Sequence record: PZ715804.1
Source of the DNA: a phage
Strand: one strand, 5' to 3'
Length of the DNA stretch: 49,773 nucleotides
Below, piece by piece: positions 10,429 through 28,569 of this stretch. Under the pieces are notes generated by a model. The model was not told the origin of the DNA. It did no database searches and saw only the letters and a program-made list of their open reading frames with translations. The translations under genes were made by a program, and so were the position numbers. Every line of letters starts with the position of its first letter. Within the stretch, counting starts at the first letter, position 1.

Positions 10429-10676
10429 TGAGCGAAAAAATGGTTACTATTAAATTAACTGAGCAAGGTTTATGGCTTCTTTATCGCGCTACGTGCTGCG
10501 AGATTATGGAGCGAAACGGATTGACTAATGATGTTATTGGTTGCGATCTGTGGGAGTTCACTAGTTCTCTTGATATGTCTTTCGATGAGATAAAAAATGA
10601 ATACATAGAGAATTGGCCTTCAATCATACAGAGAGACGTAGAGGAACTTAAAGCTGATATGATCGTTCAGCACTAA
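10425..10676 (+). CDS. hypothetical protein
   Basis: 83 aa from ATG overlapping Dam stop (ATGATG) behind GAGGAAAG RBS; stop TAA lies inside a motif copy. Confidence 0.45.
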   Translation: MMSEKMVTIKLTEQGLWLLYRATCCEIMERNGLTNDVIGCDLWEFTSSLDMSFDEIKNEYIENWPSIIQRDVEELKADMIVQH

Positions 10677-11512: not shown

Positions 11513-12664
11513 ATGTCACAAGCTAAAATCACTACCGAACAACTTGTCGAAGAGCGCATGAACGGCCTAACACTTCGCGAGATCGCGGAAAAGTACGGTA
11601 TGCACATTCGAACTGTTGAAGCTCGCCACGCAAAGTTGGCAAAAGAAGGTCACTTCCACGGTAACGAGCATGTTGCTAAGAACGTACCGGAAGGATTCAT
11701 GGTAAAAGGCACATCAACGATGATTCGCGGCGATGGGACCGAGGTGGTGCGCTGGGTTAAGACCGATCAGGACCGTGAGAAGATTGCAGCAATGATGGAA
11801 GCGGCGCGTATTGCATTCTGTGAAGATCTGCCGCGAGCAAAGCCAACTGAGCTACTAACCTCACAAGGGCTTACGACAGCGATGGGTAAGCTGGCACTCT
11901 ATCCGGTATTCGATCTTCATATTGGCGCGCTTGCTCATAAGCATGAATGCGGAGAGAACTATTCTACCGATGTGGCGGAAAAAGTGCTGAGTGACTTCTT
12001 TAATTACGCGATCGATATTGCTCCGAACGCAGAGAAGGCTGTTCTGTTAATCGGCGGTGACTTCCTGCACTCTGACGGACTTGATGCAGTTACTCCGGCA
12101 AGCGGTCACGTTCTTGATCAGGATTCACGATATGCAAAATTGGTGCATGTAGCTATTCGATCTGTTCGTCGCGCTATCGACAAAATGCTGACTAAACACA
12201 AAGAGGTCGAAGTTCAGGTTGTCGAAGGAAACCACGACCAGGCCGGGATGATTTGGTTGCGCGCCGCAATGGCTGCATACTATGAAGACGAGCCGAGAGT
12301 ATTCGTTGACGTAAGCCCTATGGTTCTACATAAGACTCGCTGGGGAAATACTTTGCTTGGATATACTCACGGTCACACGATGAAAAAGGCAGAGACTCGA
12401 CTCGCAGCTATGGCAGCAGATTTCCGCGCAGATTTTGGTGAAAGCAAATACGTGTACACGCATAGCGGACACTGGCATCATCAGACAATCACTGAACACT
12501 CGTTAGGTATTGATGAGGTTCACGGGCAGTTAGGCGCGAAAGATGCATACGCCGCGCGAGGTGGGTGGCGCTCATATCGCCAGGCGGCGGTAATCGTTTA
12601 CGATAAACAGTTTGGTGAAATCGGTCGATTCATATATCGTCCAGAAATGACAGGATCGCACTAA
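11513..12664 (+). CDS. calcineurin-like metallophosphoesterase with N-terminal HTH-like region
   Basis: 383 aa; phosphoesterase motifs VFDLHIG, GGDFLHSDG, VEGNHDQ; N-terminal LTLREIAEKYGMHIRTV. Confidence 0.5.
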   Translation: MSQAKITTEQLVEERMNGLTLREIAEKYGMHIRTVEARHAKLAKEGHFHGNEHVAKNVPEGFMVKGTSTMIRGDGTEVVRWVKTDQDREKIAAMMEAARIAFCEDLPRAKPTELLTSQGLTTAMGKLALYPVFDLHIGALAHKHECGENYSTDVAEKVLSDFFNYAIDIAPNAEKAVLLIGGDFLHSDGLDAVTPASGHVLDQDSRYAKLVHVAIRSVRRAIDKMLTKHKEVEVQVVEGNHDQAGMIWLRAAMAAYYEDEPRVFVDVSPMVLHKTRWGNTLLGYTHGHTMKKAETRLAAMAADFRADFGESKYVYTHSGHWHHQTITEHSLGIDEVHGQLGAKDAYAARGGWRSYRQAAVIVYDKQFGEIGRFIYRPEMTGSH

Positions 12665-25633: not shown

Positions 25634-25836
25634 CAACGGAAGATGCAGCGCGTGACGCAGTGGAAGGGATGCGCCCAAATACCTCCAGAATCGCACACTA
25701 CTACAATTTTGACGTGTCGGCAGTGCAACTGGTCCATGAAATTTTAAGGCTTCCACAAGTCGATTCAGCGCGCGTGGTGACGTGCTTAAAAAATTATTTT
25801 TGCATCACTATTAAAACGAATAGCACGAATTGCTAA
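25618..25836 (+). CDS. hypothetical protein
   Basis: 72 aa; C-terminus ...TNSTNC* read through the repeated motif. Confidence 0.4.
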   Translation: MATIMTTEDAARDAVEGMRPNTSRIAHYYNFDVSAVQLVHEILRLPQVDSARVVTCLKNYFCITIKTNSTNC

Positions 25837-25868
25837 AACCTATCAAGGGGAATGCGCTATGATTCCCC
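25821..25868 (+). promoter_or_regulatory. motif-spacer-(-10)-hairpin cassette
   Basis: TAGCACGAATTGCTAAAAC, 22 nt spacer, TATGAT in hairpin GGGGAAT...ATTCCCC. Confidence 0.55.
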
Positions 25869-25893
25869 TACACCAAAAAACGAGGGAACACTC

Positions 25894-26340
25894 ATGAAAC
25901 ATTTGATTTGCATTGAAACGCCTAACGATGAATACACCCTGCACGGCATCGGAATGTTCAAAGGTCACTACATGACAGCAAGCATTTATGATGCGCGTCG
26001 CGGCGATGGCGATCTGATGATTAACTCAAAAGAGGTTAATCCGTACATCATGCAGAATCTTGGAAATAACGAATATATGGCCTACGGCTGCAATGCGGTG
26101 TACAAGAATATCAAGATCCGCAAGCGCGTCGTGCGAGCATTCAAGAAGATTGCAATGAAATACTGGAAAATGAGCAAGAAAGATGCCGGACGTTGGGCGC
26201 GCAACGTTGCAGATTCATACTTCTATCGTAACGGCGAATCCTGCTACTTTCTGATCGATGAGCTTATGGAAAACTACGGTGGCGACTTCAGTCAGGGTAG
26301 CTTTGACGCCTGGGCTGACTACGAGGTCGATTACTGGTAA
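25894..26340 (+). CDS. hypothetical protein
   Basis: Start at internal Met (MKHLICIET) behind GAGGGAA RBS, downstream of cassette 25821-25868. Confidence 0.5.
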   Translation: MKHLICIETPNDEYTLHGIGMFKGHYMTASIYDARRGDGDLMINSKEVNPYIMQNLGNNEYMAYGCNAVYKNIKIRKRVVRAFKKIAMKYWKMSKKDAGRWARNVADSYFYRNGESCYFLIDELMENYGGDFSQGSFDAWADYEVDYW

Positions 26341-26387
26341 TAGCACGAATTGCTAAAACTTGCTCAAGGGCATTTGATAGAATGCCC
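26341..26387 (+). promoter_or_regulatory. motif-spacer-(-10)-hairpin cassette
   Basis: TAGCACGAATTGCTAAAAC, 22 nt spacer, TAGAAT in hairpin GGGCAT...ATGCCC. Confidence 0.55.
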
Positions 26388-26423
26388 TTCGTTGAGTTAA
26401 GCAACCAATCAGAGGAATAAATC

Positions 26424-27035
26424 ATGGATAAAATTACCATTTGGGGCCAGACAATCAACCTGTTTCTCGGCACGCGCCGCGTAGCAATCTTTGACTTTGA
26501 TGGAACACTTAGCGATGGATCTGGTCGACTTCACCTGCTACCTACAAAGGATTTGCACTTAACTGAAAGCTGGTCCGAGTTTAACCGCGCGGCAATATTT
26601 GACAACCCTATCCAAAGCACGATCGATGTGATGAACTCTATGTATGCCGCTGGTCATCATGTGATCATTTTAACCGGGCGAAGTGATGAGGTGCGTTACG
26701 CATCTGAGTTGTGGCTTAAGCATCACGGCGCTCGATATGATTACCTGATTATGCGACCATACACCGATAACCGGAAAGACACAGTAATGAAAGAAGAGGC
26801 GGTGCGCGCGATCGGCATTGATAACATTCTGGCGGCCTGGGATGACTCACCGCAAATTATTCCATTATTCCGCTCACTTGGAATAACCACTTACGCTGTA
26901 GTTGACTATGGCGATAAAGTTCACGATCATTTAAAATCTCACGGGGTAGATGAGGTTTGCAATCATGAACCATCTGAGCCGCTACCGCCATTTGGTGAGA
27001 AAATTTGCATTAAGTGCAAGGAGTTATTGAAGTGA
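26424..27035 (+). CDS. HAD-superfamily phosphatase
   Basis: 203 aa; motif I DFDGTLSDG; ACCAATCAGAGGA RBS context. Confidence 0.65.
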   Translation: MDKITIWGQTINLFLGTRRVAIFDFDGTLSDGSGRLHLLPTKDLHLTESWSEFNRAAIFDNPIQSTIDVMNSMYAAGHHVIILTGRSDEVRYASELWLKHHGARYDYLIMRPYTDNRKDTVMKEEAVRAIGIDNILAAWDDSPQIIPLFRSLGITTYAVVDYGDKVHDHLKSHGVDEVCNHEPSEPLPPFGEKICIKCKELLK

Positions 27036-27143
27036 ACCTATACGAATTTATTGCAGCACATCCGGTACTAACAGTTATCATTCTGTTAATCATAAACTCC
27101 ACCATCATCAATGTGGCGAAATTATTTTTAGGGAGATACTGAC

Positions 27144-27716
27144 ATGAAAACAGCTATCATTTTAAACGGTGCGCCTGGCGCGGGAAAAGACACTATAGGG
27201 TGCATCCTGGCTGACACTTACGATCATGTAGCGCTACGCAGCTTTAAAGCTCCAATGTTTGAGATTGCCCGAGCAATCCTGGGTGAGACTAATTTTGAGT
27301 ATTTCATGTTCTTGTATGAGGACCGTCGCTATAAAGAAGAGCCAGCATCAATCCTGAACGGTAAAAGCCCGCGCCAGTTTATGATCTGGATTAGCGAGGA
27401 GGTTATCAAGCCGCAGTTCGGAAATCGCTTCTTCGGTATGCGAGCGGAAAGCAAGGTGAAAGAGTCTCACTCCCTTTCGGTATTTACTGACGGTGGATTC
27501 AAAGACGAAATCTTGCAGATGATTGAAGGTGAAATCCAGGTCAAGCTATGTCGAATCCATCGCAACGGTTGCAACTTTGACAACGACAGTCGCGACTACA
27601 TCTATCTTGACGATATGATCGGGGTCAACGGTTATCAGGAATGTGACTTCTTCTCTGTCGAAGGTCATCCAGAAATTACCGCTCAGCACATAGCCGCCAC
27701 GTTCATCAACAAATAG
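27144..27716 (+). CDS. P-loop kinase (nucleotide or polynucleotide kinase-like)
   Basis: 190 aa; Walker A GAPGAGKDT at N-terminus; stop TAG begins a motif copy. Confidence 0.6.
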   Translation: MKTAIILNGAPGAGKDTIGCILADTYDHVALRSFKAPMFEIARAILGETNFEYFMFLYEDRRYKEEPASILNGKSPRQFMIWISEEVIKPQFGNRFFGMRAESKVKESHSLSVFTDGGFKDEILQMIEGEIQVKLCRIHRNGCNFDNDSRDYIYLDDMIGVNGYQECDFFSVEGHPEITAQHIAATFINK

Positions 27717-27762
27717 CACGAATTGCTAAAACGTCGGTGGGGTGACTTGATATAGTTACCTC
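27714..27762 (+). promoter_or_regulatory. motif-spacer-(-10)-hairpin cassette
   Basis: TAGCACGAATTGCTAAAAC, 22 nt spacer, TATAGT in imperfect hairpin. Confidence 0.55.
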
Positions 27763-27788
27763 ATCGACAACGAAGAGAGAAAATCGAA

Positions 27789-27998
27789 ATGATGGTATCA
27801 ACTGACAAGTTTTTCACTTGCACTAAAACTTCTGAAGTATTCGAACTGGTTCATACTGATAATGGTGACTTCATGCATGACGGTTGCGACGTTTTCATTG
27901 AAGTGAAAGAAAGCGACTATGACTATGGGGTTTATTATAACCCGGCAGTGAACACTCAGTTTTTTACACCGATCGAAGAGGAAGGAGAAGAAGCATGA
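27789..27998 (+). CDS. hypothetical protein
   Basis: 69 aa; downstream of cassette 27714-27762. Confidence 0.45.
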   Translation: MMVSTDKFFTCTKTSEVFELVHTDNGDFMHDGCDVFIEVKESDYDYGVYYNPAVNTQFFTPIEEEGEEA

Positions 27999-28339
27999 TC
28001 ACGATTAACCTGTCAGATAAACAAGCGCGTGAAATCCTCGATACTATCGGCGAACAGCTTCACGTAAAAGGCGCTACCGCTGAGATTCTTAACCAGATCG
28101 AAAGACAGCTAACCCCGGTGTCGACGAATCAGGCTGAGTTCTCAATCTGGAAAAGCGAGCGAATCCTGCCAAATATCATCAAGGCATGGAAGCGCAAGAA
28201 TAAAAAAGAAATCAATGTTGATGACTTATTTTCTGATGAATTAAGTCCTTCAAAGGTTGCTCAATATCAGTTGCGATACATGGAATCAGTTTGCAATCAG
28301 GTTTTAAATGTCAACTTTTCATTCGGGAGTGGTAAATAA
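27995..28339 (+). CDS. hypothetical protein
   Basis: 114 aa; start overlaps previous stop. Confidence 0.5.
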   Translation: MITINLSDKQAREILDTIGEQLHVKGATAEILNQIERQLTPVSTNQAEFSIWKSERILPNIIKAWKRKNKKEINVDDLFSDELSPSKVAQYQLRYMESVCNQVLNVNFSFGSGK

Positions 28340-28569
28340 TGTTTGGTTTAAGTGAAGCGGAATGGAACGTGGTAAAGCGCGCGGCGAAGGAATTGAATAA
28401 ATTCGTTAGCGGAATGAAGAAAGAAGATCGCAAAAACGAAAAGATTATGATTGATGTGATCTCAACTCATCACAAAAAGGTTGAGCTACTCATCGACCGC
28501 TACAAGTTTGTATGGGCCGCCGGATATATTGCAGGGCGCGTAGGTAACAAAGAGGGTGATTACGAATAA
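28339..28569 (+). CDS. hypothetical protein
   Basis: 76 aa; start overlaps previous stop. Confidence 0.45.
   Translation: MFGLSEAEWNVVKRAAKELNKFVSGMKKEDRKNEKIMIDVISTHHKKVELLIDRYKFVWAAGYIAGRVGNKEGDYE

Follow-up and report, generated by a model that had tools for sequence, protein, structure and literature searches.

The question raised by this stretch of phage DNA (record PZ715804.1, 49,773 nucleotides (nt), called the window here) concerns two genes at positions 26,424 to 27,716, one for a HAD-superfamily phosphatase with a DFDGT motif and the other for a P-loop kinase with the motif GAPGAGKDT. Do they encode a polynucleotide kinase-phosphatase that is split in two, as an earlier note on this DNA had proposed, or two enzymes of another kind? 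Both open reading frames (ORFs), on the same strand, were confirmed, and both are real genes because they have hundreds to thousands of homologues. The proposal itself is partly supported. The two proteins belong to families with conserved catalytic residues, their genes share an operon structure, and the pair recurs in other phages, in some of them as a fusion. The reading preferred here, to which a probability of about 0.6 is given, is that the two enzymes, each autonomous but linked in function, belong to a single pathway of salvage and end processing and are transcribed together in this phage.

The phosphatase is a Pnkp-type HAD 3′-phosphatase, and a phosphatase only, its activity being predicted from sequence. 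It scores 60.2 bits against the Pfam model PF25109 HAD_PNKP (cut-off 27.6), with residues 20–159 aligned to profile positions 3–138 of 143, and it is assigned to phrog_415 of the PHROGs database at 2.7e-66. The only sequence matches among solved structures are the phosphatase parts of Pnkp1 (4xrp) and T4 Pnkp, and the phosphatase domains of these same two proteins are also its nearest solved folds. A profile built from 28 phosphatase sequences aligns with residues 151–298 of T4 Pnkp at 97% probability. The phosphatase core comprises residues 1–178. Its DxDxT motif, D24-F-D26-G-T28, is invariant in the 28 homologues and holds the equivalents of T4 D165 and D167. In a pairwise alignment the T4 residues D165, D167, R176, S211, R213, D254, K258, D277 and D278 correspond to D24, D26, R35, T84, R86, D119, K123, D140 and D141, respectively. 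Among the 28 homologues R35, R86 and K123 are invariant, D119, D140 and D141 are at least 90% conserved, and the position of T84 is Ser or Thr in most. Mutagenesis in the Shuman laboratory is said to have found R176, R213 and D254 of T4 Pnkp essential. The roles of D165, D167, S211, K258 and D278 in T4 Pnkp are known, and the T4 phosphatase domain also hydrolyses 3′-TMP (PMC3592404). By homology, D24 would form the aspartyl-phosphate and D26 would act as general acid/base, with T84 and K123 holding the phosphate and D24 and D141 the Mg2+.

The 120 homologues listed, the T1 protein included, are all single-domain proteins of 162–264 amino acids (aa). In databases the T1 protein is named “polynucleotide kinase” or “3′-phosphatase, 5′-polynucleotide kinase”. 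For this protein of about 180 aa the widespread label “polynucleotide kinase” is only half right: it lacks a kinase domain and is a phosphatase only. In contrast to T4 Pnkp (PseT; 1ltq, 5uj0) and to Pnkp1 of Pnkp1-Rnl-Hen1 (4xrp), the window phosphatase is without a kinase domain on the same polypeptide and without a partner RNA ligase, and it carries an N-terminal extension of 20 residues, an insert at residues 36–60 (LHLLPTKDLHLTESWSEFN) and an optional Cys/His tail. This tail of 25 residues, with the pattern C-x-H ... C-x2-C (CNHEPSEPLPPFGEKICIKC), is present in about 10 of the 28 aligned homologues (P0099, P0101, P0114, P0133, P0171 and others), is doubled in P0129 and is absent from T1. 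In the structure model it forms short strands of low confidence. The tail is possibly a zinc knuckle, with metal binding as its putative property.

In the Shigella phage phiL (locus L002, 3624–4438) the phosphatase gene seems to be interrupted, as some 200 additional bases divide its match to the window. The phiL record annotates a 204-nt hypothetical ORF and a 408-nt “polynucleotide kinase” there. An insertion or a pseudogene may be the explanation.

The kinase is not of the Pnkp type. By structure and profile comparison it belongs, distantly, to the lineage of T5 Dnk and T4 gp1. Its nearest fold is the deoxynucleoside monophosphate (dNMP) kinase T4 gp1 (PDB 1dek), and not that of the polynucleotide kinases. 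T5 Dnk is a biochemically characterised enzyme of broad specificity. With this protein hhalign gives 96% (E 4e-9) over 63 columns, which include the motifs GKDT, SFxxPxxExAxxILG and RRxKE, and BLASTP gives 1e-7; the hidden Markov model (HMM) of the kinase family matches T5 Dnk at two motifs. With T4 gp1 hhalign gives 75% (E 2.6e-5) over 74 columns, an identical LNGKSP among them. MAFFT aligns T4 gp1 with the family in the first third only, and motif matches in the C-terminal half, drawn by eye, are tentative. The similarity to T5 Dnk and T4 gp1 reaches beyond the P-loop, whereas that to T4 Pnkp (88%, E 3.5e-6) covers 25 columns and the P-loop only. In PHROGs the kinase falls in phrog_139, “deoxynucleoside monophosphate kinase” (2e-46, residues 1–187), a name that is itself an annotation. 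The family is very large, with 5,222 cluster representatives (E 0.001 or better), nearly all of about 190 aa, and 1,431 GenBank phage records. Its invariant residues are N8, G14, K15, D16, R77, S84, E85, K89, D116, G118, F119, E122, D148, S149 and R150.

Important for the question posed above are the residues that mark the kinase domain of T4 Pnkp. The two proteins have a common P-loop register, with K15 in both, but K15-S16 of T4 faces K15-D16 in the window kinase, where D16 is invariant. The positions of T4 Asp35 and Arg38, as set by the P-loop register and secondary structure and not by superposition, are K35 (at least 90% conserved) and M38. Ser16, Asp35 and Arg38 were shown to be essential in T4 Pnkp (PMC2831316). 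Compared with T5 Dnk (T5.043) and T4 gp1, the window kinase is 50–60 residues shorter and is without their helical inserts; it has D-G-G for D-x-R and another lid (RxHRxG...DSR), and it stays below the Pfam DNMK thresholds. The evidence favours a mononucleotide (dNMP) kinase as the predicted activity.

The profile comparison with Pnkp and dNMP-kinase families that the earlier note had called for thus gives a divided result: the phosphatase goes to Pnkp, and the kinase goes to phrog_139 and T5 Dnk, with Pnkp matched at the P-loop only. The domain content of a polynucleotide kinase-phosphatase holds for the first protein but not for the second, which is like T4 gp1 and T5 Dnk and is without the counterparts of Ser16, Asp35 and Arg38. 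The alternative offered in the same note, a dNMP kinase plus nucleotidase, is closer; it fits the kinase, but the phosphatase is of the 3′-phosphatase (Pnkp) type and not a generic 5′-nucleotidase.

Ten longer kinase relatives were scanned with Pfam and PHROGs for fusions to domains other than HAD, and only helix-turn-helix (HTH) or unassigned extensions were found. Thus they provide no link to a ligase or to another nucleotide enzyme. One relative (P0326) has an N-terminal extension of about 170 aa with a weak winged-helix match, and another (P0268) an N-terminal Cys-rich region of about 95 aa; neither extension could be placed in a family.

The earlier note had assigned each gene a cassette of its own. 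This does not stand. The window contains a 21-nt repeat (ATAGCACNNNTTGNTAAAA) 24 times, where 0.12 copies would be expected, and copies of it (aaATAGCACnnnTTGnTAAAA) are found at 26340 and 27713 with none between these positions. The phosphatase and kinase genes therefore share one inter-repeat unit. It is situated in the early part of the genome, and the terminase genes lie downstream of it. The two genes are neighbours, as had been stated, but they are not strictly adjacent, as a 36-aa ORF for a putative membrane peptide lies between them. The GTG start of this small ORF overlaps the stop codon of the phosphatase gene (GTGA), and its own stop is 1 nt ahead of the ATG of the kinase gene. A scan of positions 25700–28000 for sigma-70 promoter and intrinsic-terminator consensus sequences yielded chance-level counts, with none between the two genes. 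Most likely, 26340–27731 is transcribed early and as a single unit, and codes for two distinct enzymes.

The claim that the two genes belong together gains independent support from unrelated phage families, in which the pair keeps its order, and from three natural fusions. In 74 of 80 Drexlerviridae-like IMG/VR loci with the kinase, the phosphatase gene is found upstream on the same strand, 0–2.2 kb away, and the reverse order is never found. The gap between the genes in Drexlerviridae, of as much as 2.2 kb, is filled by small ORFs or, in T1, by an HNH endonuclease gene. In 22 of the 74 loci the two genes abut, and a homologue of the phrog_704 metallophosphoesterase is directly upstream. In the window the metallophosphoesterase gene is about 14 kb away, and therefore the pair stayed together through rearrangement. 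Outside Drexlerviridae, PP99 and phiEa100, from two Autographiviridae genera, have the gene order exonuclease, endonuclease VII, metallophosphoesterase, phosphatase, kinase, DNA ligase, with overlapping stop and start codons of phosphatase and kinase. The two genes are translationally coupled in these phages and in many Drexlerviridae. The DNA ligase gene directly downstream of the kinase in PP99 and phiEa100 is found directly upstream in Farigoule.

Three clusters of fusion proteins, P0217 (403 aa), P0349 (413 aa) and P0229 (461 aa), have the HAD_PNKP domain at the N-terminal and the kinase at the C-terminal side, joined by a homologous linker. P0217 and P0229 are just 37% identical yet have a common linker motif; the fusion is thus real and old, though rare, and it occurs in at least two diverged lineages. 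Contigs from separate samples carry P0217, and on the longest, of 60.7 kb (L003), the phrog_704 gene is immediately downstream. Mammalian PNKP consists of a HAD phosphatase followed by a P-loop kinase and belongs to a DNA rather than an RNA context. Its domain order is that of the window genes and of the three fusions; it differs in that the window kinase is of another P-loop lineage, there is no FHA domain, and the window has two separate proteins.

Each enzyme also occurs alone in other phages, and the two are therefore autonomous. The kinase is without a HAD gene within 3 kb in eight sampled phages (ISAO8, HA1, IME267, LAh_8, Farigoule, HB01, CM1 and CS01), and the phosphatase is without the kinase in K-01, Drulisvirus P12L and Vp_R1. 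Neighbours of the solitary kinase are nucleoside deoxyribosyltransferase and ribonucleotide reductase (RNR) genes in LAh_8, dUTPase in Farigoule, and thymidylate synthase and RNR in CM1.

In the preferred reading, both enzymes would act in one process by which degraded host DNA is converted to precursors and to usable 3′-OH ends for phage DNA synthesis. The phosphatase would act on 3′-(deoxy)nucleotides as well as on the ends of DNA or RNA, taking off their 3′-phosphates, and the compact kinase of the T5 Dnk and T4 gp1 lineage would convert dNMPs to dNDPs. The evidence for the former favours a 3′-phosphatase of nucleic acids or of 3′-nucleotides; we infer the substrates, and with them the salvage role, from the relatives of the two proteins and from gene context. 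In other phages the same genes are directly associated with the metallophosphoesterase nuclease. In T1 and TLS infections host DNA is broken down and its nucleotides are used again, and the genes responsible are described as unidentified (PMC11447400). The pair has been read independently as “enhancing nucleotide supply” (PMC13164509).

Several observations weigh against this reading. No Pfam or NCBIfam model matches the kinase above cut-off; PF21448 DNMK does not match the window kinase at all, and only 2 of 32 family members match it weakly (best E 0.0026). The HMM of the kinase family does not retrieve T4 gp1. The D-x-R after strand 3, TDVRF in T5 and PDTRQ in T4, is TDGGF in the window kinase (in the family D116 and G118 are invariant, and conservation of G117 is at least 90%). 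The acceptor site may for this reason differ from that of the characterised dNMP kinases. The activities of both subfamilies are predicted ones. It should also be noted that it is not obvious what a 3′-phosphatase would act on in a pathway with 5′-dNMPs as its product, and that a Pnkp-type phosphatase-kinase fusion, with a DNA ligase next door in some phages, resembles an end-healing enzyme.

The last point leads to the alternative that survives best, a modified form of the proposal in the earlier note, unlikely as it is. It holds that the pair is a split, sometimes fused, polynucleotide kinase-phosphatase of new build, in which the gp1-like kinase would act on 5′-OH ends of DNA (or RNA) and the HAD enzyme would clear 3′-phosphates. 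Sealing of the healed 3′-P/5′-OH breaks would fall to host LigA in this phage and, in PP99 and phiEa100, to the phage DNA ligase. The metallophosphoesterase may trim the breaks before they are sealed, and phage nucleic acid would be protected against host nucleases. The absence of the Pnkp kinase residues and the mononucleotide-kinase fold of the window kinase count against this proposal, as does the frequent solo occurrence of the genes, but a true Pnkp-type domain in the phosphatase, the three fusion clusters with the phosphatase-kinase order of mammalian PNKP, translational coupling in PP99, phiEa100 and many Drexlerviridae, a DNA ligase gene adjoining in the first two and in Farigoule, and the missing D-x-R of the characterised dNMP kinases count in its favour. 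The further step would be to regard the HAD enzyme and the gp1-like kinase as a class of polynucleotide kinase-phosphatase not recognised so far, a dNMP-kinase fold having been recruited as 5′-kinase, and as part of a portable DNA-end repair module with the HTH-metallophosphoesterase and, where present, the DNA ligase. This step is more doubtful again. If true, T1-like and some T7-like phages could withstand, by means of this module, host nucleases that leave 3′-phosphate/5′-OH breaks.

Next in order, and also improbable, is that the two genes are unrelated neighbours with no shared pathway, the phosphatase acting for example in anti-defence on a phosphorylated signal and the kinase as a dNTP booster or as a counter to dNTP-depleting defences. 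The occurrence of each gene alone in several lineages is in line with this, as is the separation of the two in Drexlerviridae by small ORFs over as much as 2.2 kb, or by the T1 HNH endonuclease gene. A PADLOC search found no match for the phosphatase, the kinase or the metallophosphoesterase; this provides no direct link to defence and is silent on anti-defence. However, order and strand are kept through the relocation in Drexlerviridae (metallophosphoesterase side versus early arm) and in two Autographiviridae genera, and fusions exist in at least two diverged lineages. Literature searches for any part played by the T1 “PNK” or by dNMP kinases in defence or anti-defence returned only genome-announcement papers; in the retron Eco2 paper Drexlerviridae appear solely as phages that are not restricted, and T4 PNK solely as a reagent.

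Classical tRNA repair as in T4, in which the pair would heal cuts by anticodon nucleases (PrrC, RloC and others) and provide ends for an RNA ligase, has the domain content of T4 Pnkp, the physiological role of that enzyme and the best PDB relative of the phosphatase (Pnkp1 of a bacterial RNA-repair complex) on its side, but it is very unlikely, because the kinase is not of the Pnkp type and no ligase is annotated in the relative vB_Henu5_2, 98% identical over the 2.6 kb compared. Moreover, the removal of 3′-phosphate or cyclic phosphate would rob the host RtcB ligase of its substrate, and the informative gene contexts are those of DNA and nucleotide metabolism.

As for the ligase that the tRNA scenario lacks, the earlier note had recognised no RNA ligase, in agreement with the annotation of vB_Henu5_2, in which neither a DNA nor an RNA ligase is listed. 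No ligase of any kind is found among the 79 annotated genes of this phage, which is 98% identical over 2.6 kb, about 50 of these genes being “hypothetical”; the hypothetical ORFs were profiled in part. A tblastn search of the window with the PP99 DNA ligase as query gave no match. T1, to our knowledge, is without a polymerase or ligase of its own.

The genes are said to have been annotated in T1-like phages since the publication of the T1 genome. The feature is already known, because the genes, their names and the nucleotide-supply hypothesis are found in GenBank records and in two papers. The published annotation of T1-like phages (T1, TLS gp09/gp14, KanT1 and phi2013) has the same two genes as “polynucleotide kinase” and “dNMP kinase”. 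The papers on close relatives contain both gene names and the nucleotide-supply suggestion, but do not mention the phosphatase-only “PNK”, the recurrence outside Drexlerviridae or the fusions (PMC11447400, PMC13164509). The additions made here are modest: a “PNK” that is a phosphatase only, a kinase of a very large phage family that is tied, distantly, to T5 Dnk and T4 gp1, the pair or trio across phage families, and the fusions. The trio of metallophosphoesterase, phosphatase and kinase, together with the rare fusions, is a lead that is cheap to test on the conversion of host DNA to phage DNA by T1. For T1-like phages this conversion is still open according to the TLS authors (PMC11447400).

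Over the 2.6 kb compared (25800–28400) the window is 98% identical to the Escherichia phages JMPW1, phi2013, vB_EcoS_IME167 and vB_Henu5_2, all of them Tunavirus, Drexlerviridae. The window, which at 49.8 kb has the length of an entire T1-like genome, is thus the complete genome of a Tunavirus (T1-like) coliphage. The features of the unit, and the distant metallophosphoesterase gene, are listed in Table 1.

Table 1. Positions in the window of the phosphatase-kinase unit, its flanking repeats and the metallophosphoesterase gene
Feature	Position	Strand	Remarks
Opening 21-nt T1-type direct repeat (ATAGCACGAATTGCTAAAA)	26340..26358	+	Exact match; first base is the last base of the TAA stop of the upstream gene
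Inverted repeat GGGCATT-TGATAG-AATGCCC	26368..26387	+	Loop and 3′ arm contain the -10-like TAGAAT (26378-26383)
Pnkp-type HAD 3′-phosphatase (predicted), stand-alone, 203 aa, ATG start	26424..27035	+	FDFDGTL is residues 22-28
Optional C-terminal Cys/His tail of the phosphatase (residues 179-203)	26958..27032	+	Homologue alignment
Small hydrophobic ORF, 36 aa from GTG 27032 (42 aa if GTG 27014), NLYEFIAAHPVLTVIILLIINSTIINVAKLFLGRY	27032..27142	+	
T5 Dnk / T4 gp1-like P-loop (d)NMP kinase (predicted), 190 aa, ATG start	27144..27716	+	GAPGAGKDT is residues 9-17
Closing copy of the 21-nt repeat	27713..27731	+	Includes the kinase stop TAG 27714-27716; opens the next unit
HTH and divergent metallophosphoesterase (“DNA repair exonuclease”, phrog_704 homologue)	11513..12664	+	

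The small hydrophobic peptide is kept across the Tunavirus relatives. A more distant locus (L021) has a diverged copy that is recognisable by AHPVLT...VAK, and in the phage LeonhardEuler the ORF is annotated as hypothetical. In T1 (L007) the HNH gene between the HAD and kinase genes, that of a homing endonuclease, takes its place. The DNA for the phosphatase tail overlaps the alternative start of the small ORF.

The phrog_704 protein begins with a helix-turn-helix, and its match to calcineurin-like metallophosphoesterases is weak and below threshold; a search by sequence found no solved relative. In Webervirus-like loci, PP99, phiEa100, K-01 and L003 its gene adjoins that of the phosphatase, whether or not the kinase is there as well. 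On L003 (11789–13578) the genes beyond the fusion are those for the phrog_704 nuclease, a PAPS-reductase-like protein and a Dam-type methyltransferase, which may represent a DNA-modification context.

The 21-nt direct repeat has already been described for TLS, T1 and Rtp, and its function is listed as unknown in the TLS paper (PMC11447400). A common layout is seen on the 3′ side of most of the 24 copies (ATAGCACnnnTTGnTAAAA), for example those at 10667, 18414, 21028, 21768, 22789, 24273, 25820, 26340 and 27713. An inverted repeat, the sequence of which varies from copy to copy, follows about 10–17 nt downstream; its loop or 3′ arm always includes a -10 hexamer like TATAGT, TATAAT or TAGAAT, often preceded by TG. 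At most copies a CATCGAnAACGA-like box and then a Shine-Dalgarno sequence are found downstream of the hairpin; in the unit described here, CAATCAGAGGA is the Shine-Dalgarno region downstream of the inverted repeat. The TTGnTA within the 21-nt repeat is about 22 nt from the -10, too distant for a standard sigma-70 promoter. The co-varying stem sequences suggest that the hairpin may be under selection.

In Autographiviridae, a slot in the DNA-metabolism region, after the endonuclease VII gene and before the ligase or RNA polymerase gene, varies in its contents. P12L (L102) has only the phosphatase in this slot, HA1 (L092) only the kinase, ISAO8 (L090) the metallophosphoesterase and the kinase, and PP99 (L086) and phiEa100 (L088) have the metallophosphoesterase, the phosphatase and the kinase.

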